A stretch of DNA of 8,474 bases from the NCBI RefSeq assembly GCF_029504745.1, contig NZ_JAQFIQ010000067.1, positions 1 to 8,474 on the forward strand. Direction: 5' to 3'. The notes beneath the pieces were generated by a model. That model saw only the letters and a list, made by a program, of their open reading frames with translations, was not told the origin of the DNA and made no database searches. Both the position numbers and the translations under genes were made by a program. Source of the DNA: Breznakia sp. PF5-3. GTDB taxonomy: Bacteria; Bacillota_I; Bacilli_A; Erysipelotrichales; Erysipelotrichaceae. Within the stretch, counting starts at the first letter, position 1; each line of letters begins with the position of its first letter. This document shows positions 1-8,474 of the stretch, piece by piece.

Positions 1-91
1 TTTATAGAGGATTCACCTCTGAAGCAAGACAATTGCACTTTTTTGATAGATTATAGTTAATTTTATTTAGCTATTGACATCTAATAGTTTG

Positions 92-117
92 TCTTATTCA
101 ACAATCTTGTTGGTACA
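92..117 (-). repeat. 26-nt conserved element, copy 1 (partner 1021-1046); encodes a ...KCTNKIVE* tail on the minus strand
   Basis: tcttattcaacaatcttgttggtaca versus tcttattcaacaagtctgctggtaca matches at 22/26. The minus-strand frame here reads *IGFMGRKKDLNRNKCTNKIVE*. Confidence 0.5.
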
Positions 118-230
118 TTTGTTCCTGTTTAGATCTTTTTTGCGTCCCATAAACCCAATCTATTAATTTAGTATATCACGCTATATGATTAACTGCTTTA
201 GTCAGATCATACATTTTTGTTATTAAATTA

Positions 231-324
231 GTTGATCATTCTCATCATACGTATATATTTCATTACTTCCACCTTCTTTTTCCTTGTTCTTTCAATTTCC
301 GCTTTCATTGCAATAGAAAGAAAG
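231..324 (-). pseudogene. Fragment of an rhs YD-repeat region, homologous to 6150-6243 and carrying an in-frame stop
   Basis: Hand alignment of 231-324 against 6150-6243 in the same orientation gives about 11 mismatches in 94 nt. The fragment translates ...LSFYCNESGN*KNKEKEGGSNEIYTYDENDQLI**, versus ...ISFYYNENGNLKNKVKEDGSNEVYTYDENDQLTQL in the main gene. Weaker similarity may extend to ~199. Confidence 0.75.
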
Positions 325-354
325 TAATTTTATAACCACTTGTTTTCTTTTAGC

Positions 355-1011
355 TTATTTAAATGGATATTTTATAATTTTAATATTAGTTTCCATATTA
401 CTTGTTAAAAATGCTTTGCATTTTTTAGAATTAGAAAATACTTCTACTGGAATTTCTTTCATTTTTTCTTTGTACTGGTTAAGAAAAAATGAATCATCCT
501 CATCTTTGTTTACTTCATTAAAATGTTCATTTAAATAATTATAAGTTTCCTGTGCAATTTTATAATTATTGTAATAAAGATTTAAAATTACTTTAAAATA
601 ATATTGATAAAACATCATTTTTTTAGTAGTTAATTCTAATATACTGTTTACATCATGAAAACTATTAAATTCTGGAATGATTTTTTCTTTGATAATATTA
701 TAAAAGTCATCAAATGCTTTTTCGCAATCTGCCTCTGTTTCTAATGGCCACCAGTGATCTTTTCCATATATTAATCGTCCAAATCTGCTACTTGTTTCAA
801 ACTTAATCGCTTGATATGGTTGATATAATAAAGAAAAGCTATAATTTCCTGTTACTTCTTTTCCATCAGACCGTTTTTGAATATGAATCTCTTCAACAAC
901 ATCATACTCTGTTCTTCTCACAAAAAAGGTTGATTTCCATTTTTGAAATCCTAATTCCTTCATCTTTTTTGTAAATATTCGCATCTGCTTATTGTATATT
1001 TTTGTATCCAT
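355..1011 (-). CDS. Cytoplasmic DUF4304-like protein (218 aa); candidate orphan immunity protein
   Basis: No signal peptide. The N-terminal pattern ...FTKKMKELGFQKWKSTFFVRRTEYDVVEEIHIQKRS... fits the DUF4304-type pattern I recall (xLKxLGFkKkGxxFxRxxxdxxxxIxFQKS), a family common next to polymorphic toxins. The SD AAGAGGAAA (1016-1024) lies 4 nt before the ATG (1009-1011). The family call is from memory, not from a search. Confidence 0.7.
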   Translation of the reverse strand: MDTKIYNKQMRIFTKKMKELGFQKWKSTFFVRRTEYDVVEEIHIQKRSDGKEVTGNYSFSLLYQPYQAIKFETSSRFGRLIYGKDHWWPLETEADCEKAFDDFYNIIKEKIIPEFNSFHDVNSILELTTKKMMFYQYYFKVILNLYYNNYKIAQETYNYLNEHFNEVNKDEDDSFFLNQYKEKMKEIPVEVFSNSKKCKAFLTSNMETNIKIIKYPFK

Positions 1012-1020
1012 ATTATTTCC

Positions 1021-1046
1021 TCTTATTCAACAAGTCTGCTGGTACA
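1021..1046 (-). repeat. 26-nt conserved element, copy 2 (partner 92-117); encodes a ...YCTSRLVE* tail and overlaps the SD of the DUF4304-like gene
   Basis: See the partner feature. The three amino-acid differences between the two tails are conservative (S/N, R/K, L/I). The stop TAA is at 1023-1025. Confidence 0.5.
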
Positions 1047-1190
1047 GTAATATCGTTATCTTTTATTGAGAAGCATCTAATGTTTTATAAATCAAATTAA
1101 TAGCCTCTTTATTTTATTATTACTATAAGTACAAGTCTTTTTTTCTATATCATGAGTACAGCCGTAACATGCAATGACTATGTAACTCAT
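1023..1190 (-). pseudogene. Possible decayed small Cys-rich ORF or toxin-tail remnant between the 118-aa lipoprotein gene and the DUF4304-like gene
   Basis: A single minus-strand frame reads MSYIVIACYGCTHDIEKKTCTYSNNKIKRLLI*FIKH*MLLNKR*RYYCTSRLVE*. Its ATG (1188-1190) overlaps the lipoprotein stop as ATGA. Three in-frame stops interrupt it, and the final 8 codons recur at 92-117. In AT-rich DNA this could be chance. Confidence 0.25.
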
Positions 1191-1543
1191 TCCAACCTTA
1201 TATAATCTCCTGTATCCGTCTGATAAACATCACCAGTATAAATATCCACAGCATAATTTCCTGTTACTGTTTTCTTACTAGGAGAGTCTAAATAACTGCG
1301 AAAACCATAATATATTCTATCTTCATAAACAATAACTCCCAATGCTTCTGTTTTAGTCTCATCTCCAAGCTTATCTTTTACTTTATCCAAAAACAAATTC
1401 CATGCTTCAGATAATGATAAATTATTTTTTTCTTTTTCTATGTTAATACAAATTTCTTCTTCCCCATCGGTTTTTTCAGATTTGCTATTTTGATTGTTAC
1501 AGCCTATCAGAATTAAAGCTAAACATATTATAATTTTTTTCAT
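1187..1543 (-). CDS. Small predicted lipoprotein of unknown function (118 aa); possible orphan immunity protein
   Basis: MKKIIICLALILIGCNNQ has a signal peptide with an LIGC lipobox (Cys15). A strong SD AAGGAG (1549-1554) lies 5 nt upstream of the ATG (1541-1543). I recognise no family for the mature domain (…EAWNLFLDKVKDKLGDE…GVIVYEDRIYYGFRSYLDS…). Confidence 0.75.
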   Translation of the reverse strand: MKKIIICLALILIGCNNQNSKSEKTDGEEEICINIEKEKNNLSLSEAWNLFLDKVKDKLGDETKTEALGVIVYEDRIYYGFRSYLDSPSKKTVTGNYAVDIYTGDVYQTDTGDYIRLE

Positions 1544-1750
1544 TGCATCTCCTTATTTTAAATTCCAAATTGAAAGAATACTAACCATCAAGTTTTATAT
1601 TCTCAATTTGTAACATATCAACCTTTTATTAAAGTAACTATCCAAACTTCAACTGCATCTATCTCAATATATTTCTTAGTCTTTCTGTAACTTCTGTTGT
1701 TTCTTTTAGTAATAAGTTTCTTATCGAATCCTATCCAAGAAACCTTAACA

Positions 1751-2076
1751 TCATCTTTTGGTTTTGCTGTTTAAGTTCTTCCACCACAAAATAGATTTAT
1801 ATTCTATTGGAATATCTTCCTCAAAAGGATTTTCATATCCTAATTTTTCTAATTCATCAAACCATAAATCTCTTTTTGAATCTGGCATTTTTTTCCGCAC
1901 CATGGACAATAATCAATTTTTATATATGATTCTTCTCCGTCATGTATAATAATTCCATATTCATCAAATTTTTCATTATAATATATCAATGCATCTGGAC
2001 ACTCAAAAAGGGTCTTTTCTTTGCATTCAAAATTCAATATTTTTATCATTTGATCACAACAATTTCCTTTTTGCAT
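1751..2076 (-). pseudogene. Small Cys-rich CPWCG-motif protein (DUF6980-like, from memory), interrupted by a frameshift in an A7 homopolymer
   Basis: The track ORF 1849..2076 ends ...DYCPWCGKKCQIQKEIYGLMN*. The -1 frame continues from the A-run as (M)PDSKRDLWFDELEKLGYENPFEEDIPIEYKSILWWKNLNSKTKR* with its stop at 1751-1753. That continuation reads like genuine protein and like the tail I recall for this family (CPWCGxxLP...W[FY]DELExLG). A strong SD AAGGAG (2083-2088) lies 6 nt before the ATG (2074-2076). Confidence 0.7.
1888..1894 (-). repeat. A7 (plus-strand T7) homopolymer at the frameshift point of the CPWCG gene
   Basis: The plus strand reads ggca-ttttttt-ccgc, and the minus strand reads GGA AAA AAA TGC. 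One extra A, or a -1 slip, gives GGA AAA AAA ATG CCA GAT... and joins the two reading frames into a ~108-aa product. Confidence 0.9.
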
Positions 2077-2183
2077 AGTAATCTCCTTTTTCTCCTATTT
2101 TGAGTTTATTTATATTTCACTCCACTTATATCTTTTCTAATCCTTCTTTAATAATAGCAGTACTAAAAGCTTTATAAATTTTG

Positions 2184-2876
2184 TTATTTTATTTTTATCA
2201 TTTCAACATTAATTACATCATATCTTTTCCCAGTCTCATCATCCATAAATGATAATCTAGATCTTAATTTTTGATCATATTTATAAGAATTAAACTCTAC
2301 TTGATGGGCAAGCTTACTTTCTAATACTGCTGGATCTTCTCTCGATGGCTCACAAAGAATAGACCTACTCTGCTTATAACTCATTTCAACATTTGATTGA
2401 ATTGTTGAATATTTATACCTTTCTCCATATAAATTCATACTTATATAATTTGAATCTATCTCAATTCGATATTCGCTTTTAATCTTAGATAATTTTTTAT
2501 AAAACTGAGGATAATCTTCTTTCTTAATTGATGTTCTCCATCCTTCACTATCCATTGTCGTCACTTTATCTATTTCTACATCATCTAAATTTATCTCATA
2601 AACACCACTGACTGCAGTATAAAATTTTTTCTTCTGATCCTCATCTAATATAATATATACTGTTAGAGGGGTATCTTTTTGATTCTCTGTTAAATTGATT
2701 TTTTGTTTATTATATTCAATATAACTTATATTTTCTTCCTTAAATGTTTTCTCATCATCAACTTTTTCTTGTTCTTTGTTATCATCCTTTGGAGGGTCTT
2801 TTTGATCATTTTCACCACATCCAACCAATAACAAAGTACTCACTATTATAAACTTTTTTACTATTTCCTTTTTCAT
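2184..2876 (-). CDS. Predicted lipoprotein, paralog C; candidate orphan or extra immunity protein
   Basis: 230-aa ORF starting MKKEIVKKFIIVSTLLLVGC (lipobox Cys20). It is colinear with B without gaps, with 68/230 differences by hand count. Conserved blocks include GVYEINLD, DSEGWRTSIK, DYPQFY, YGERY, CEPSRxDPAVLES, FNSYxYDQKLR and SFMDxETGKRYD. The SD-like GAGAGGA lies upstream. Confidence 0.8.
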   Translation of the reverse strand: MKKEIVKKFIIVSTLLLVGCGENDQKDPPKDDNKEQEKVDDEKTFKEENISYIEYNKQKINLTENQKDTPLTVYIILDEDQKKKFYTAVSGVYEINLDDVEIDKVTTMDSEGWRTSIKKEDYPQFYKKLSKIKSEYRIEIDSNYISMNLYGERYKYSTIQSNVEMSYKQSRSILCEPSREDPAVLESKLAHQVEFNSYKYDQKLRSRLSFMDDETGKRYDVINVEMIKIK

Positions 2877-2879
2877 ATT

Positions 2880-2954
2880 TTAATTAATCCTCTCTTCCTC
2901 TTGTTCATGATATCTTATCTTCTGCATAGTTGTTATGAATCTATACGAGATTTC
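2880..2954 (-). pseudogene. Ghost 3' end of a toxin gene upstream of lipoprotein C
   Basis: The minus-strand translation is *EISYRFITTMQKIRYHEQEEERIN*. It resembles the 3697-3768 ghost and, more distantly, the rhs C-terminus ...IRIMREGIYEHEGKRF*. It is bounded upstream by TGA (2955-2957) and has no toxin body. Confidence 0.45.
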
Positions 2955-2996
2955 TCATCTAGTGTTATAAATATTTTAAAGGTTGTCAATCACCAT

Positions 2997-3689
2997 CTAT
3001 TTTATTCTGACCATTTCAACATCAATTACATCATATCTTTTTCCTGTTTCAGCATCCATAAATGACAATACTGTTCTTAATTTTTGATCATATTCATAAG
3101 AATTGAATGTTATGTAATATATAGTATTACTTTCTAATACAGCTGGATCCTTTCTTGACGGCTCACAGACAATAGATCTACTTTGTTTATAATTCATTTC
3201 AATATTTGACGGAACTGTTAAATAGTTATATCTTTCCCCATATAAATTCATGCTTACATAATTGAAATCTATCTCAATTTGATATTCACTTTTAGTTTCA
3301 GATAATTTTTCATAAAACTGAGGATAATCTTCTTCCTTGATTGAGGTTCTCCATCCTTCACTATCTATTGCTATTACATTGTCCATTTCTACACTATCTA
3401 AATTTATCTCATAAACTCCACTAACTGCAATAAAAAAGCTTTCCTGCTGCTCATAATTTAACATTAAAATAGATGTTAGATGTGAATTTCTTTGCTTTTC
3501 TGTTAAAATGATTTTTTGCTTATTATATTCAATATAACTTATATCATTTTCCTTAAATGTTTTCTCATAGTCAACTCTGTCCTGTTCTTTGCTATCATCC
3601 TTTAGAGGCGTTTTTTGATTACTTTCACCACATCCAACCAATAGTAAGGCACTCGCTACTATGAACTTTTTTATTATCGATTTTTTCAT
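2997..3689 (-). CDS. Predicted lipoprotein, paralog B; candidate orphan or extra immunity protein
   Basis: 230-aa ORF with the same signal peptide and lipobox as A; the first 67 codons are nucleotide-identical. It is colinear with A without gaps, with 33/230 amino-acid differences by hand count. The same spacer and SD context as A precede it. Confidence 0.8.
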   Translation of the reverse strand: MKKSIIKKFIVASALLLVGCGESNQKTPLKDDSKEQDRVDYEKTFKENDISYIEYNKQKIILTEKQRNSHLTSILMLNYEQQESFFIAVSGVYEINLDSVEMDNVIAIDSEGWRTSIKEEDYPQFYEKLSETKSEYQIEIDFNYVSMNLYGERYNYLTVPSNIEMNYKQSRSIVCEPSRKDPAVLESNTIYYITFNSYEYDQKLRTVLSFMDAETGKRYDVIDVEMVRIK

Positions 3690-3707
3690 ATTTTAATTAA
3701 AACCTCT
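3489..3707 (-). repeat. 219-nt perfect direct repeat, copy 2 (partner 4428-4646)
   Basis: See the partner feature. This copy covers codons 1-67 of lipoprotein B plus the spacer and the ghost toxin stop with its flanking bases. Confidence 0.9.
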
Positions 3708-3768
3708 CTCACTCATGTTCATGACATCTTATATTATGCATAATTGTTATGAATCTATACGAGATTTC
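3697..3768 (-). pseudogene. Ghost 3' end of a toxin gene upstream of lipoprotein B
   Basis: The minus-strand translation, in the frame homologous to the rhs stop, is *EISYRFITIMHNIRCHEHE*ERF*. Compare the real rhs C-terminus ...EEEIRIMREGIYEHEGKRF*. It has an internal TGA (3709-3711) and is bounded upstream by TAG (3769-3771), so it cannot be functional. Confidence 0.5.
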
Positions 3769-3792
3769 CTATACTAGTGTTATCAACATTTG

Positions 3793-3837
3793 AAAGAAAC
3801 AGATTGATTATTATTAATATCATCAATCTGTTTCTTT
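3793..3837. terminator. Perfect 16-bp-stem hairpin (13-nt loop) in the A-B junction; possible terminator or attenuating stem-loop
   Basis: aaagaaacagattgat (3793-3808) is the exact reverse complement of atcaatctgtttcttt (3822-3837). It lies about 100 nt downstream of the lipoprotein A stop. The stem is AT-rich. No U-tract follows on the minus (coding) strand; only an A/T-rich tail follows on the plus strand. The hairpin is absent from the otherwise homologous B-C junction. Confidence 0.35.
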
Positions 3838-3935
3838 ATATTTTAAACGTTGTTAATCACCATCTATATTATTCAATGCATGTTAAATTTTTTCAAAAAT
3901 TGTTAGATTCTTTTCTATTAAACAATCATATCACA

Positions 3936-4628
3936 CTACTTTATTTTGACCATTTCAACATCAACTATATTATATCTTTTTCCTGTTTCAGCATCCATAA
4001 ATGACAATACTGTTCTTAGTTTTTGATCATACTCATAAGAATTGAACGTTATATAATATACATATTTACTTTCTAATACGGCTGGATCTTTTCTCGATGG
4101 CTCACAGACGATAGAACCTCGTTGTTTGTAACTCATTCTTACATTTGATGGAACTGTTGAATAGTTATATCTTTCTCCATATGAAATCATGCTTACATTA
4201 TTGGCATCTATCTCAATTTGATATTCACTTTTAGTCTTAGATAATTTTTCATAAAACTGAGGATAATCTTCTTCCTCGATTAATGAACTCCTTCCTTCAC
4301 TATCTATTGCTATTACATTATCCATTTCTACGCTATCTAAATTTATTTCATAAACTCCACTGACTGCAATATAAAAGCTTTCCTGTTGCTCATAATTCAA
4401 CCTAAAATTATCTTTTGGTTTTAACTTTCTTTGCTTTTCTGTTAAAATGATTTTTTGCTTATTATATTCAATATAACTTATATCATTTTCCTTAAATGTT
4501 TTCTCATAGTCAACTCTGTCCTGTTCTTTGCTATCATCCTTTAGAGGCGTTTTTTGATTACTTTCACCACATCCAACCAATAGTAAGGCACTCGCTACTA
4601 TGAACTTTTTTATTATCGATTTTTTCAT
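3936..4628 (-). CDS. Predicted lipoprotein, paralog A; candidate cognate immunity protein for the lysozyme-like Rhs tip
   Basis: 230-aa ORF. The N-terminus MKKSIIKKFIVASALLLVGC has a positive n-region, a hydrophobic core and an LVGC lipobox (Cys20). The ATG at 4626-4628 lies 7 nt after the rhs stop. The SD-like AAGAGG (4642-4647) sits inside the last rhs codons. The mature part belongs to no family I can name. Confidence 0.8.
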   Translation of the reverse strand: MKKSIIKKFIVASALLLVGCGESNQKTPLKDDSKEQDRVDYEKTFKENDISYIEYNKQKIILTEKQRKLKPKDNFRLNYEQQESFYIAVSGVYEINLDSVEMDNVIAIDSEGRSSLIEEEDYPQFYEKLSKTKSEYQIEIDANNVSMISYGERYNYSTVPSNVRMSYKQRGSIVCEPSRKDPAVLESKYVYYITFNSYEYDQKLRTVLSFMDAETGKRYNIVDVEMVKIK

Positions 4629-4646
4629 ATTTTAATTAAAACCTCT
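4428..4646 (-). repeat. 219-nt perfect direct repeat, copy 1 (partner 3489-3707)
   Basis: A base-by-base comparison finds it identical to 3489-3707. It covers codons 1-67 of lipoprotein A, the 7-nt spacer, the rhs stop codon and the last 8 nt of rhs coding sequence. Identity breaks at 4647 (t) versus 3708 (c), and at 4427 versus 3488. Confidence 0.9.
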
Positions 4647-7600
4647 TTCCCTCATGTTCATAGATACCTTCTCTCATAATTCTAATTTCTTCTTCTCTTC
4701 TTTTTACTAGACCTCCTAGCTCAGTCCCACCATCTCCATATTTAATATTTCTAAAACTCTGATCAACTTCACCATATCTTCCATCTTTTTCAAAGACTAA
4801 TATCTCATAAATATAGGCTCCCCCTCCATTCATAGCAAGACTAGTATAAGCATCAAATACATTCTGCTTTAACTGAAACTTTAACTCTTGCATATTTGCA
4901 TTAACTATTCCTTCAAATGTCAATAAATCCTCGCGTAAAATTGCATCCATTTGTTTTTCAGTCAACGGGTTTTTATATATATTCATAAAAGCATCTTGTT
5001 CTTCTTGGGTAGTAAAATGGTGTCCGTATCCTATTGTTCCGAATTGTTCTCCTCTTACATAATAAAGTTCAGGTTCTCTTCCTTCCACTGCTTTAATATA
5101 CTTAATCATTTTATTTGATACTTTCATATTTTTTATAACAACAGAATTATTATCTTTTACTTTATTATTATCATTATTTTTTTGATCATTCTTCTTTTTC
5201 TCAAGACATTCTAATATAAATTTAGCAATATCAGTTATAAATCCACCCCAGTCTTTTCCCTTTCCAGGATTTGGATTCGGATTCGGCTTTGGTTTTGGTG
5301 TTTTTGATTGATTGTTTTTAGGAGTGGTTACTGCTTTTTTAGCTTGCTCTATTAGCCATGCTGCTAATGCCATTGTCTTCTGTGCCACATTCTTTTTCTG
5401 ATTTTTTAGTTTTTTCTCGAATGCCGCCCTTGATAAATGAGCCCATTTACTAGCAAAGTTTTCTGCCCATGAATTCCCATCCCTATCCACATACTTATAA
5501 GGGTTAGATAAGGTGTAGTTATACCGATTCTGTGTTCCTACATCTTCTTTCTCTCCTGCATAGTTGTTATCTATCTGTATGAAGTTTCCTATACTTGGAT
5601 CATAATATCGAGCTCTTAAATATATTAACCCTGTTTCTTCTTTATGCTCTCCATTGTAATAGTGTCCTTCTCCATGTTTACTATACCCATAATCACTATA
5701 ACTTGCAAGTTTTACTTTATCCCCTTTTACCTCTGCTACCACACTGTTATTTAGTCCTGCTACTTGGGTAACACCATCCTCTTCTACAATCGATATTCCA
5801 TATACATTACTCTTTCCATCTTTCTCTAAGATTTGAGTATATTCTTGATTGCGATCTAAGGTATAAATGGTTACTTCTGGTTCTTTCTTGTATGTAGATG
5901 GATAAGACGCACTTAGTACTTCCTCACATACATCTCCATTCGCTTTTTTCTTTCTTACTTGATCTCTTAAGATATCAAAGCTATCTTCTACTTCTTTTTC
6001 ACTCACTTCATCAAATTCCAACGATACTGTATAGTCATACCATAATGTCATTGGATACTCTCTGATATCGCTCTTTACTTGTTTTACTCGCTCTCCTTGT
6101 GCATCATATGTGTAATCATACACATATGCTCCCTTTTGTAGCTGTGTCAGTTGGTCATTCTCATCATACGTATACACTTCATTACTTCCATCTTCTTTTA
6201 CCTTATTCTTTAGATTTCCGTTTTCATTGTAATAGAAAGAAATCGTTCCTTTGTCACTTTCGATTGTTTCCAATTGATTACGATCATTGTATTTATATGT
6301 CTTCTTACCTTCACTACTTGATGTAACTGTCTTATTACCATGTAAATCGTAACTGTATTTGGTTGTTACTTTCTTTCCATCGACATATTTATTACTTTCT
6401 AATAATTCATCTGCTTGATTGTATTTATACGTATTTGTCTTTCCATTGATTACTTCTTTTACGAGGTTGTTATTGGCATCATAACTCTTACTTGTTGTAT
6501 GAATTGCTTTTCCACTCTTCGTTGTATCTTTTTTGATTAGGTTTCCATTGTTGTCATACCCATAAATAGATACTACACTTCCTTGGGTTACTTTTGATAC
6601 TTCTCCTCGAGCATTGTATTCATACGCTGCTACTGTCGCATCATTCTTTTTCACACTCTTTAATAGATTATATGAGTTATATGCATACTTTACTAAATCC
6701 CCATTGGCATAGGTAATGGTACTTAGCTTTTTATCTTTGTTATAAGTATACTGTACTTCTTTTTGGTTGGTATCTTTCACGGATACGATTTGATCAAAAG
6801 CGTTGTATTTATACGTAATTGTTCCTGCCTTGTTCTTAGCACTTATTACATTATCTCTTGCATCGTATTTATACGTATCATTATTTCTTTGTACCATGTT
6901 GTTGTTGGCATCATACTTATATGTAATCTTACTTCCATCTGGTTTCGTATAACTTGTTTTATTTCCATATACATCATATGTATAGAAATGTTTATACTTA
7001 TATTCATTGTACTCTGATGTTAGGTTGTTTTGACGATCGTAGTTATAGATCGCATATTTCCCATTTAAATCTTTGGTGATTACATTATTGTTTCCATCGT
7101 ACACATACGATACCACTCTTCCATGAGGGTTTTGTGCTTTCAATAAGTTATTGTTTGCATCATATTCATAACGATATGTAACCCCTCTAGCATTGGTTGT
7201 GGTAATCTCATTATTATTTCCATCATAGGTTTTTGTTTCCTTGTTTCCATTACCATCTTCAATAACTAATGCATTTCCACTTTCATCATAGGTAACCTTT
7301 TGGACACTCTTCATACTACTTCCATCCGTAGATGGTAGTTTTAATTCTACTGGTCTATTTAGTTTATCATATACGATTTCTTTGCTTAGATTATGTTCTG
7401 TTACTTTAACTTCATTGCCATTGGCATCATATACTTTGTTTAGTGTTTCTTTACCATTGGTTTTTACGCTTACCAAACGTGATAGTTCATCATATGTATA
7501 TTCTTCTACATAACTACCATTTTCACTCTTCTTAAGCAATTCGCCATACACGTTATAAGTAGATACACTCTTGTATCCTTTTTCATTACTGCTTTTTTGA

Positions 7601-8474
7601 TTACCAAAAATATCATAAGTATACGTAGATTTCGCAAATCTTGCATCATACGATGTAACCAATTGATTGTATTTGTTGTATTCATTCTTTTGCGTGATAC
7701 GAGTATTTGTCTTTGTTTCTACTAGATTCCCTTTCTTATCATAGGCATTGCTAAGAACTTTATTTCCATTCTTCTCTTTTGTGACATTTCCTAATACATC
7801 ATAGGTTCTAGTTGTTTTATATCCTCTTCCATCACTTTCTTCAATTACTTGTCCATATGCATCATAGGCATACGTTTTTGTATTTCCATTACCATCAATT
7901 TCTTTTACAGCTTGGTTCTTGTCATTGTATTTTAAATAAGAACTATTTCCTAATTTATCTACAACTTCCACCAACCGACATTCATCATCATAAACATAGG
8001 TAATAGCAAATCCTCTTTGATCGATTTCTTTCGCTACTTGTCCATACTCATTGTATAGCGTTTGTTCACTATTTCCATTCGCATCGATTACCTTTGTGAC
8101 ATTCCCATTTGCATCATATTCATTTTGGGTTGTATTTCCTAAAGCATCGATTTCTTCCACAACTTGATTTTTTTTATCGTATACCTTCTTTATCGTATTA
8201 CCAAGAGCATCTTTTTCTTCAATGATATTGCCATTGGCATCATATACCGTCATTGTTTTTTGATTTCGATTAATATCTTGTTCTTCAATTACTTGATAGT
8301 TAGCATCATAGATATAAACAACTTCTTTTTCAGCTACTTTTTCTTTTACTTTATGATGAAGTTCATCATATTCATTAACCGTTTTCAATCCCAATTCATT
8401 GGTTGTAGAAACTACATTTCCATATTTATCATAGGTATTCTTTATCGTTCCTTTGTAGCTTGTTGTTTTTACTA
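4636..8474 (-). CDS. Rhs/YD-repeat polymorphic toxin, 5'-truncated by the window edge, with a C-terminal GH24 lysozyme-like toxin domain
   Basis: The track ORF is 4636..8394, but its 'M' is a TTG codon (8392-8394) and the frame stays open to the window edge. Translating 8395-8474 gives ...VKTTSYKGTIKNTYDKYGNVVSTTNE, which continues the YD repeats. Dozens of YD-type repeats are present (xYxYDxxGNxx, e.g. VYDANGNIIEE, NEYDANGNVTKV, TYAYDAYGQV). The Rhs-associated core ends with ETGLIYLRARYYDPSIGNFIQID...NRYNYTLSNPYKYVDRDGN and is followed by a 278-aa variable tail. Stop TAA is at 4636-4638. Confidence 0.92.
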   Translation of the reverse strand, partial: VKTTSYKGTIKNTYDKYGNVVSTTNELGLKTVNEYDELHHKVKEKVAEKEVVYIYDANYQVIEEQDINRNQKTMTVYDANGNIIEEKDALGNTIKKVYDKKNQVVEEIDALGNTTQNEYDANGNVTKVIDANGNSEQTLYNEYGQVAKEIDQRGFAITYVYDDECRLVEVVDKLGNSSYLKYNDKNQAVKEIDGNGNTKTYAYDAYGQVIEESDGRGYKTTRTYDVLGNVTKEKNGNKVLSNAYDKKGNLVETKTNTRITQKNEYNKYNQLVTSYDARFAKSTYTYDIFGNQKSSNEKGYKSVSTYNVYGELLKKSENGSYVEEYTYDELSRLVSVKTNGKETLNKVYDANGNEVKVTEHNLSKEIVYDKLNRPVELKLPSTDGSSMKSVQKVTYDESGNALVIEDGNGNKETKTYDGNNNEITTTNARGVTYRYEYDANNNLLKAQNPHGRVVSYVYDGNNNVITKDLNGKYAIYNYDRQNNLTSEYNEYKYKHFYTYDVYGNKTSYTKPDGSKITYKYDANNNMVQRNNDTYKYDARDNVISAKNKAGTITYKYNAFDQIVSVKDTNQKEVQYTYNKDKKLSTITYANGDLVKYAYNSYNLLKSVKKNDATVAAYEYNARGEVSKVTQGSVVSIYGYDNNGNLIKKDTTKSGKAIHTTSKSYDANNNLVKEVINGKTNTYKYNQADELLESNKYVDGKKVTTKYSYDLHGNKTVTSSSEGKKTYKYNDRNQLETIESDKGTISFYYNENGNLKNKVKEDGSNEVYTYDENDQLTQLQKGAYVYDYTYDAQGERVKQVKSDIREYPMTLWYDYTVSLEFDEVSEKEVEDSFDILRDQVRKKKANGDVCEEVLSASYPSTYKKEPEVTIYTLDRNQEYTQILEKDGKSNVYGISIVEEDGVTQVAGLNNSVVAEVKGDKVKLASYSDYGYSKHGEGHYYNGEHKEETGLIYLRARYYDPSIGNFIQIDNNYAGEKEDVGTQNRYNYTLSNPYKYVDRDGNSWAENFASKWAHLSRAAFEKKLKNQKKNVAQKTMALAAWLIEQAKKAVTTPKNNQSKTPKPKPNPNPNPGKGKDWGGFITDIAKFILECLEKKKNDQKNNDNNKVKDNNSVVIKNMKVSNKMIKYIKAVEGREPELYYVRGEQFGTIGYGHHFTTQEEQDAFMNIYKNPLTEKQMDAILREDLLTFEGIVNANMQELKFQLKQNVFDAYTSLAMNGGGAYIYEILVFEKDGRYGEVDQSFRNIKYGDGGTELGGLVKRREEEIRIMREGIYEHEGKRF
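4660..5121 (-). other. GH24 (T4/phage-type) lysozyme-like toxin domain of the Rhs protein
   Basis: Residues ~1092-1245 read SNKMIKYIKAVEGREPELYYVRGEQFGTIGYGHHFTT...PLTEKQMDAILREDLLTFEGIVN...LKQNVFDAYTSLAMNGGG...GGLVKRREEEIRIM. This matches the GH24 signature blocks EG..x..Y.D..G..TIGYGH, iTexqAxxlLxxDl, QxxALxSfxFNxG and GLxxRRxxE. The candidate catalytic Glu is E1104 (codon 5083-5085) and the Thr26 equivalent is T1120 (5035-5037). This is motif recognition only; no HMM was run. Confidence 0.8.
5122..5472 (-). other. Post-core linker: predicted helical segment followed by Pro/Lys/Asn/Asp low-complexity spacers
   Basis: Residues 975-1091 read SWAENFASKWAHLSRAAFEKKLKNQKKNVAQKTMALAAWLIEQAKKAVTTPKNNQSKTPKPKPNPNPNPGKGKDWGG...KKKNDQKNNDNNKVKDNNS. 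The PKPKPNPNPNP stretch (within 5254-5325) is encoded by imperfect hexanucleotide repeats (ggatttggattcggattcggctttggttttgg on the plus strand). I recognise no domain here. Confidence 0.5.
5473..5661 (-). other. C-terminal end of the Rhs-associated core domain, including the boundary (autoproteolysis-type) motif
   Basis: Residues ~912-974 of the track ORF read YNGEHKEETGLIYLRARYYDPSIGNFIQIDNNYAGEKEDVGTQNRYNYTLSNPYKYVDRDGN. This matches the canonical ...TGLyYxxxRYYDPxxGRFxxxDP...NxYxYxxNNPxxxxDPxGL pattern. The final motif is DRDGN (5473-5487) rather than DPxGL. Confidence 0.8.

Follow-up and report, generated by a model that had tools for sequence, protein, structure and literature searches.

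A GH24 lysozyme domain at the tip of a Breznakia Rhs protein as a candidate wall-acting toxin with lipoprotein immunity

The stretch of DNA investigated in this study, an entire contig of 8474 bp from Breznakia sp. PF5-3 (overall G+C 29.6%) to which we refer as the window, encodes the C-terminal part of an Rhs protein and, downstream of it, three related lipoproteins, with all genes under discussion residing on the minus strand. Breznakia is a Gram-positive bacterium from the insect gut, which is assigned to the Erysipelotrichaceae in the phylum Bacillota and which is bounded by a single membrane. The 278-residue tip of the Rhs protein contains a domain of the GH24 family of lysozymes, an assignment that is confirmed far beyond chance. 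As best explanation of the locus, which we hold to be probable on balance, we propose an extracellularly acting Rhs-borne muramidase toxin with lipoprotein immunity. The Rhs protein, the GH24 domain and exported immunity are all of known kinds, the novelty lying in their combination rather than in a new principle.

The GH24 domain that the initial annotation had placed on the Rhs tip is borne out by a significant match to hidden Markov models and by a match on the level of the structure. The Pfam family PF00959 (Phage_lysozyme) is recognised on tail residues 128-262, where it covers positions 2-125 of the 125 positions of the profile (E 9.4e-16, 58.7 bits, cut-off 22.3), the PHROG endolysin family phrog_7 is detected with an E of 2e-19 and the best sequence match to a GH24 lysozyme of solved structure has an E of 3.7e-6; a match to the NCBIfam model of the Bartonella gene-transfer-agent endolysin stays below the cut-off of that model. 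In an AlphaFold model of the tip, which was built from 27 sequences, tail residues ~117-270 form a folded domain with predicted local distance difference test (pLDDT) values of 77-92. The top entries of a Foldseek search of this model against the PDB are exclusively GH24 enzymes with a probability of 1.0, and template modelling (TM) scores of 0.71-0.74, normalised to the target, were obtained for 6h9d, the muramidase domain of SpmX, 6et6, an Acinetobacter prophage muramidase, and 9kbs. Further matches include LysF1 (7m5i), R21 (3hde) and many entries of T4 lysozyme (T4L). The residue numbers assigned initially are also correct, with the domain spanning approximately residues 1090-1252 of the open reading frame (ORF) and E1104 constituting the predicted catalytic Glu.

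The predicted active site is contained in the loop E130-G-R-E-P-E-L-Y-Y-V-R-G-E142-Q-F-G-T146-I-G-Y-G-H. In an alignment with T4, P22 and phi29-type lysozymes, E130 and T146 sit in invariant columns, which include E, G, Y, T-I-G-x-G-H, two Asp and the Arg of GLxxRR, and the blocks L-x-Q-N-x-F-D-A…N-x-G and G-L-x-K-R-R-x-x-E are kept in the tip. The initial description of a domain reproducing the T4/P22 signature blocks in order is thus accurate for the Glu, the Thr and the other blocks but not for the position of Asp20 of T4L, which is occupied by Val139/Arg140 in a loop that is longer by one residue. How this difference is to be viewed becomes apparent in the segment from Glu to Thr of the ~155 nearest GH24 relatives, which falls into three classes. 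The canonical 15-residue spacing is found in combination with an Asp at position E+9 in 67 of these proteins and with a Cys at the same position in 14, and in a third class, comprising 34 members, the loop is extended by one to two residues, contains no Asp or Cys and carries a Glu exactly four positions ahead of the Thr (T-4). This Glu is found in all 20 sequences with a spacing of 17 and in 14 of the 22 with a spacing of 16, and most of the other eight retain an Asp or Cys in the loop. The third class contains the Breznakia tip and also p15 of Nf, a phi29-like Bacillus phage; with an identity of 32-34%, this endolysin is among the closest phage matches of the tip. According to a recent review, p15 of phi29 functions as a muramidase with a catalytic domain similar to 6h9d and to the muramidase of the Acinetobacter prophage (PMC11476376), the same proteins that are the top structural neighbours of the Breznakia tip. 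Since the Asp-less loop is shared by 34 of ~155 relatives including p15 of phage Nf, the missing Asp is not a sign of decay but a natural trait of this class. The tip is consequently a GH24 domain of the phi29-p15 loop class rather than strictly T4/P22-type. The default assumption that an enzyme devoid of Asp20 would be dead was dropped, as phi29-type endolysins are functional with this loop. A different situation is encountered in the GH24 relative P0177, a protein of 770 residues encoded on a 1.06-Mb contig, which combines a lipoprotein-like N-terminus with a long charged coiled-coil and whose loop YKVRGAGRWTIGYG holds neither the Asp nor the T-4 Glu, making it a candidate for a non-catalytic or differently catalytic GH24 protein.

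The domain is located at the end of an Rhs protein whose ORF, listed as 4636..8394 (-), stays open to base 8472 and extends uninterrupted over 1279 codons, and the N-terminus of the protein is thus cut off by the contig end. Pfam RHS_repeat is recognised in 17 stretches of this ORF (E 8e-76) and the YD repeat TIGR01643 in 11 (E 1e-53), and the Rhs-associated core TIGR03696 matches ORF residues 899-973 (46.5 bits, cut-off 32.5). The boundary sequence YLRARYYDP…NPYKYVDRDGN terminates in DRDGN, a variant of DPxGL, which is the predicted site of the autoproteolytic release of the tip, and the similarity of the Breznakia protein to other Rhs proteins stops at this boundary. The tip begins directly after …SNPYKYVDRDGN, and the coordinates that had been attributed to it initially proved exact, with 278 codons and the stop codon right behind (Table 1). 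A protein search for the N-terminus with the first 300 residues retrieved only YD proteins of 24-35% identity, and scans of genome contigs and metagenome contigs with segments of the Breznakia Rhs protein found nothing of this region. Pfam and NCBIfam profiles detected no genes for VgrG, PAAR or Hcp in the window, and to our knowledge no type VI secretion system (T6SS) is known in the Bacillota. A scan of bases 1-5600 gave promoter counts at chance level and no terminators. The interpretation of the domain as part of a prophage or as a virion lysin was rejected, with the lysozyme domain being the sole phage-type part of a gene in the window as judged by PHROG.

Between the boundary and the lysozyme domain resides an extended spacer, and the three-part organisation of the tail that had been proposed initially, a helical segment, a low-complexity spacer and a folded domain, is reflected in the AlphaFold model. 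Helices are predicted at tail residues 2-24, 27-49 and 75-102 with pLDDT values of 40-68, and residues 50-74, which contain the sequence PKPKPNPNPNP, are predicted to be disordered. The spacer is strongly basic (pI 10.0, net charge +13.5) and the lysozyme domain acidic (pI 5.35). The spacer does not contain a transmembrane segment, the maximum of the Kyte-Doolittle hydropathy over 19 residues being 0.82. Tail residues 1-66 are an orphan sequence, to which an exhaustive HMMER search found no match among 1.84 billion representatives, and Pfam yielded only coiled-coil matches for the spacer, all of them below threshold. On the level of the DNA, imperfect hexanucleotide repeats had been described as encoding the spacer; such a repeat is indeed present, but it is confined to the 32 nt coding for PKPKPNPNPNP, and a weak second repeat with a 15-nt unit in 1.9 copies is found at 5170-5198. 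A variation of the spacer length between strains, which had been suspected in the same context, finds no support in the two comparable assemblies, since bases 1-5643 (5643 nt) match contig JAQFIO010000074.1 from Breznakia sp. PM6-1 with 100% identity. The distance from the boundary to the catalytic Glu encompasses 129 residues in Breznakia compared to 45-71 in other Rhs proteins with a GH24 tip. We can only speculate that the spacer enables the enzyme to reach peptidoglycan. Being cationic, it may attach the acidic enzyme to the anionic wall of Gram-positive cells.

Table 1. Features of the window and their coordinates (strand as encoded; T4L, T4 lysozyme; slash, predicted cleavage site)
Feature	Position	Strand	Basis or remark
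Complete C-terminal tip, 278 aa, 31.9 kDa	4639..5472	-	stop codon 4636-4638
Spacer, tail residues 1-116	5125..5472	-	three predicted helices, two low-complexity stretches; pLDDT 34-68
Imperfect hexanucleotide repeat encoding PKPKPNPNPNP	5267..5298	.	TRF period 6, 5.3 copies, 84% matches, score 36
GH24 (T4-lysozyme fold) domain, tail residues ~117-270	4663..5124	-	PF00959, pLDDT, Foldseek
Predicted general-acid Glu codon, tail E130 = ORF E1104 = T4L Glu11 equivalent	5083..5085	-	invariant alignment column
Position of T4L Asp20 = Val139/Arg140	5053-5058	-	sequence alignment
E142-Q-F-G-T146, class-specific Glu four residues ahead of Thr	5035..5049	-	T146 = T4L Thr26 equivalent
Rhs/YD-repeat core, partial	5473..8474	-	RHS_repeat and YD repeat; N-terminal trafficking region beyond contig end
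Rhs-associated core domain with boundary motif	5473..5700	-	TIGR03696; end …YLRARYYDPSIGNFIQID…NPYKYVDRDGN
Lipoprotein 1, 230 aa	3936..4628	-	signal peptide and lipobox MKKSIIKKFIVASALLLVG/C; start codon 7 nt past rhs stop
Copy of last rhs-tip codons and purine-rich ribosome-binding region, upstream of lipoprotein 2	3690..3734	-	self-BLAST and alignment
Lipoprotein 2, 86% identical to lipoprotein 1	2997..3689	-	sequence comparison
Similar copy upstream of lipoprotein 3	2877-2920	-	self-BLAST and alignment
Lipoprotein 3, 67% identical to lipoprotein 1	2184..2876	-	sequence comparison

The second pronounced feature of the locus concerns the lipoproteins that are encoded downstream of the tip. 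The lipoprotein signal of lipoprotein 1 reads MKKSIIKKFIVASALLLVG/CGE, and its n-region, h-region and the lipobox LLLVG/C are invariant across the three paralogues, which would thus be exported to the compartment that holds the peptidoglycan. The mature proteins are acidic (pI 4.6-5.0). They show no family matches in Pfam, NCBIfam, PHROG or the sequences of the PDB, and homologues outside Breznakia were not found among 5.8 billion clusters. Lipoprotein 1 occupies the canonical position of an immunity gene and the gene is triplicated, and we predict from this arrangement that it constitutes the cognate immunity protein. The copies of ~45 nt of the 3'-end of rhs that precede lipoproteins 2 and 3 imply that the duplicated unit began inside the toxin gene and that it included the ribosome-binding region. 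The first ~200 nt of the genes of lipoproteins 1 and 2, which encode the signal peptide and an N-terminal linker, show 100% identity, and the differences between the two genes are clustered at nucleotides 201-230, 336-350, 424-446, 487-512 and 563-570 of the coding sequence. This mosaic suggests gene conversion at the 5'-end or a diversification of patches within the mature domain, if not a combination of the two. The gap of 246 nt between the two genes contains a perfect hairpin with a stem of 16 bp at 3793-3837, whose RNA has a minimum free energy of -20 kcal/mol (z = -5.4 compared to shuffled sequences) and which has no counterpart in the gap ahead of lipoprotein 3. As a tentative proposal, the Breznakia lipoproteins might constitute a new orphan family of membrane-anchored GH24 inhibitors in Gram-positive bacteria that has no relation to LprI, MliC/PliC, Ivy, PliG or Spackle and whose paralogues, having diverged in patches, would protect to differing degrees against the variants of Rhs-borne lysozymes that kin produce.

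The described organisation is not restricted to Breznakia. Among the best 150 representatives, we found four further proteins with a GH24 domain located directly behind an Rhs core boundary. P0152, encoded on a forest-soil contig with 55% G+C, is a protein of 1919 residues with a Sec signal, DUF6531 and RHS repeats (boundary …NPVAYNDPTGY), and P0170 (41% G+C) comprises 1398 residues including a Sec signal and DUF6443 (boundary …NPVFFIDYDGM). P0034 is a 502-residue fragment of a P0170-like protein and P0090 a fragment of 239 residues (boundary …NPVNYTDPTGL). The pattern NP-x-x-[YF]-x-D-x-x-G that defines the boundary in Breznakia also precedes the GH24 tips of all four proteins, in which a polar spacer separates it from the catalytic Glu, and their domains contain canonical Asp-containing loops with GH24 scores of 99-125 bits. 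Their mutual identities of 28-36% and differing cores indicate that the Rhs-GH24 fusions are independent. GH24 tips on Rhs proteins are thus present in at least three metagenomic lineages besides Breznakia and do not constitute a one-off. In all four loci, which represent three independent lineages, a small exported protein is encoded immediately downstream. In case of P0152, this protein consists of 140 residues with a signal peptide and an LprI lysozyme-inhibitor domain (PF07007, 56 bits, cut-off 22), and the proteins downstream of P0170, P0034 and P0090, of 157, 157 and 158 residues, contain a lipobox and form one loose family. Proteins with LprI domains that are encoded beside lysozyme-like T6SS effectors have already been proposed to act as immunity proteins (PMC9796082). 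Scans for additional loci were negative, with the P0170 tip retrieving from genome contigs 31 free-standing phage-type lysozymes but no Rhs protein, and with a query including the conserved end of the Rhs core retrieving from metagenomes 79 Rhs loci with other tips but none with GH24. Upstream of the gene of P0170, at 151-3528 of L112, we observe a protein of 1125 residues without Pfam family, which may be an export or assembly partner of P0170.

In the mechanism that we propose based on these features, the YD-repeat shell would enclose the 32-kDa tip of 278 residues, which would be released by the conserved protease motif of the core at DRDGN/S. The released tip would consist of the basic spacer of ~116 residues and a GH24 muramidase of the phi29-p15 loop class, with Glu130 as predicted catalytic acid acting together with Thr146 and Glu142, latter of which would replace the carboxylate of the Asp20 type. 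At the surface of a neighbouring cell with a single membrane, the enzyme could cut the glycan strands of the exposed peptidoglycan without having to cross a membrane. On the outer face of the membrane of the producer and its kin, the acidic lipoproteins would bind or inhibit the enzyme, and the three paralogues would probably extend the protection to variant tips. The cage may in addition shield the wall of the producer during export. The data establish the Rhs core with its boundary, the GH24 family, fold and loop class, the lipoprotein signals, the order of the genes and the recurrence of an Rhs-GH24 protein with an exported downstream protein in other loci, and we infer from them that the tip is catalytically active, how it is exported and released, where it acts, what the lipoproteins do and what the spacer contributes. 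That toxin and immunity both act outside the membrane, as already suggested in the initial annotation, is supported indirectly by the invariant lipobox in the three lipoproteins and by the exported downstream proteins in the four other loci, one of them with an LprI domain. The recurrent pairing of an Rhs-GH24 protein with an exported neighbour provides the strongest available support for an extracytoplasmic action of both.

The proposed system shares different aspects with several known ones, resembling the muramidase toxins of Gram-negative bacteria in its mode of working and the WapA-type Rhs toxins of Gram-positive bacteria in its construction. Proteins of the phi29-like p15 type have the Pfam family, fold and loop class in common with the tip and act on Gram-positive peptidoglycan. 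However, p15 is a holin-dependent enzyme of phage lysis with a C-terminal wall-binding domain, whereas the GH24 domain of Breznakia lacks such a domain and constitutes the C-terminal cargo of an Rhs protein behind a basic spacer. The metagenomic Rhs-GH24 proteins share the entire architecture with their Breznakia counterpart, including the core boundary, the polar spacer, the C-terminal GH24 domain and the exported downstream protein, but they differ in their canonical GH24 domains, which are 28-36% identical to the Breznakia tip, in spacers of half the length and in neighbours that are unrelated to the Breznakia lipoproteins. A characterised member of this group was not found within the literature searched. 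In pesticin/Pim of Yersinia, the T6SS effector VgrG3, Tge/Tgi and systems with LprI-type immunity, a muramidase toxin is combined with exported immunity at its site of action, as we propose for Breznakia, and hybrids of pesticin and T4L are found among the Foldseek matches of the tip. Two studies are concerned with such interbacterial toxins (PMC9620997, PMC9927483), which include pesticin-like and lysozyme-like T6SS effectors with periplasmic immunity. Pesticin and the T6SS muramidases are Gram-negative proteins that rely on TonB-dependent import or delivery by a T6SS and they are not encapsulated by Rhs, whereas in Breznakia, as a member of the Bacillota, there is no outer membrane to cross. 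With WapA-type and general Rhs toxins, the Breznakia system shares the YD shell, the cleavage boundary of the core, the variable tip and the directly downstream position of a gene that in Breznakia is a candidate for immunity, but the characterised tips of such proteins (tRNases, DNases, NADases, ADP-ribosyltransferases and pore formers) act in or on the cytoplasm and are neutralised by cytoplasmic immunity proteins. The survey of polymorphic toxins by Zhang et al. 2012 included a glucosaminidase toxin but not a GH24 tip and reported a single lipoprotein immunity family (PMC3482391). A text search on Rhs combined with lysozyme or muramidase, whose coverage is incomplete, found no paper describing an Rhs-borne GH24 domain. 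Finally, the tail lysozyme gp5 of phage T4 and its periplasmic inhibitor Spackle provide another case of a GH24 domain on a delivery device that is blocked by an exported protein, with 7cn7 being among the fold matches of the tip. This pair operates in phage infection and superinfection exclusion, and Spackle has no sequence relation to the Breznakia lipoproteins.

Several observations weigh against a muramidase toxin with lipoprotein immunity, and they have to be considered together with the alternatives that they suggest. With respect to catalysis, the equivalent of Asp20 in T4, or the Cys found at its place in some relatives, is absent from the tip, and the role of Glu142 as substitute for the missing carboxylate is suggested by its conservation only, with the residue aligning to Glu22 of T4L, which is non-catalytic in T4. 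The domain could instead act as a lytic transglycosylase forming 1,6-anhydro-MurNAc at the MurNAc-GlcNAc bond, and would still be an extracellular wall toxin with lipoprotein immunity. Besides the presence of Val139/Arg140 at the canonical position of the Asp or Cys, the lambda R lysozyme offers a precedent for such activity, as a GH24 enzyme that functions as transglycosylase without second carboxylate. We nevertheless regard this as quite improbable since the invariant T-4 Glu of the loop class could serve as base, since the phage member p15 has been described as muramidase and since the best Pfam and PDB matches of the tip are P22/T4-like rather than lambda-like. Another concern relates to the divergence of the domain, which is evident from its Pfam score of 58.7 bits compared to 99-150 bits in ten GH24 relatives with long N-terminal extensions and which finds its counterpart in an identity below 45% to the nearest database relative outside Breznakia. 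In addition, the best structural match, the muramidase domain of SpmX, is a localisation module, and NCBIfam LysLocSpmX is a weak match. Both the low score and the resemblance to SpmX would be in line with a GH24 domain of weak or no activity that has an accessory role in binding or breaching the wall, in a manner similar to SpmX or T4 gp5. The payload would then be located elsewhere, as for example in the basic helical segment of 116 residues, which is strongly cationic and has double the length seen in other Rhs-GH24 proteins. This segment, however, has neither a transmembrane segment nor a homologue and is modelled with low confidence, whereas a GH24 domain with canonical catalytic residues holds the toxin position in four other Rhs proteins, one of which (P0152) is followed by a gene encoding a lysozyme inhibitor, and the tip itself keeps the catalytic Glu, the Thr and the blocks lining the substrate cleft. 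An accessory role of the domain thus appears unlikely.

The candidate immunity proteins raise doubts of a different kind. The lipoproteins have no similarity to the known inhibitors LprI/DUF1311, MliC/PliC, Ivy and PliG in Pfam, NCBIfam and the PDB, their comparison by hhalign to the exported proteins encoded beside the other Rhs-GH24 genes yields a probability of 0.5%, and the AlphaFold model of the lipoprotein, built from three sequences, reaches a pLDDT of only 44. Devoid of homology to inhibitor families and of a usable structure, they could represent an array of an unrelated surface-protein family, with the protection of the producer being conferred by modification of its wall or by another gene. 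Such a strategy is known from the producers of the bacteriolysins lysostaphin and zoocin, which protect themselves by wall modification. Contrary to this idea, the position directly downstream of the tip is the canonical one for immunity and is occupied by an exported protein in each of the four other Rhs-GH24 loci, lipoprotein 1 starts 7 nt past the stop codon of rhs, whose 3'-end doubles as its ribosome-binding region, the duplicates of the gene have retained a piece of this 3'-end, and the differences between the paralogues are confined to tight patches of the mature part, as would be expected for a binding surface. We thus assign only a small probability to a function of the lipoproteins outside immunity. 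A final reservation concerns the integrity of the locus, since the N-terminus of the Rhs protein, and with it evidence for export and for completeness of the gene, was not recovered from the searched collections. In the extreme case, the locus would be a decaying orphan, a remnant of rhs truncated at its 5'-end, whose tip is drifting and whose expression has ceased. The absence of the N-terminus from all searched assemblies, the decayed state of neighbouring genes (the split DUF6980 gene and the rhs core relic with stops at 230-323, see below) and the divergence of the GH24 domain could be cited in its favour. Yet, the 1279 codons are uninterrupted to the end of the contig, contigs typically break inside repeated rhs cores, the core motifs and catalytic residues are intact and the sequence is identical in two strains, which renders decay very improbable.

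If the lipoproteins do constitute a new family of GH24 inhibitors, as tentatively proposed above, the Rhs-GH24 pair would be the first Rhs system whose cargo works outside the target cell. How the cargo of Rhs proteins exits the cage and crosses the envelope is an unsettled question, especially in Gram-positive bacteria. A wall-digesting cargo needs no membrane crossing and would thus allow to study cargo release on its own, with lysis as read-out. Rhs proteins with a lysozyme tip are found in at least four lineages, and in each of them the tip is accompanied by an exported neighbour of its own. Among these neighbours there may be new families of lysozyme inhibitors, which would matter in practice for antibacterials based on endolysins and for resistance to lysozyme. 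Judged by the compared sequences, GH24 would constitute a predictable class of Rhs cargo, which in the present case belongs to a Gram-positive bacterium and for which an orphan family of lipoproteins provides the candidate inhibitor.

The remaining part of the window contains additional genes and gene remnants. At 1187-1543, it encodes a lipoprotein of 118 residues with the lipobox LIG/C and a pI of 4.5 that belongs to no family, and at 355-1011 a cytoplasmic DUF4304 protein (PF14137, 36 bits). Both may be orphan immunity genes for displaced tips, and no literature on either family in toxin loci was found. The region 1751-2076 harbours a DUF6980 gene that is split into the overlapping ORFs 1849-2076 (75 aa) and 1751-1909 (52 aa), both matching PF22400, and that is probably a frameshifted orphan gene of the immunity type. 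Downstream of the DUF4304 gene, bases 230-323 share 89% identity with bases 6149-6242 of the rhs core and contain stops in their translation. This relic of an rhs core hints at past rearrangements of rhs and may explain why assemblies break in this place.

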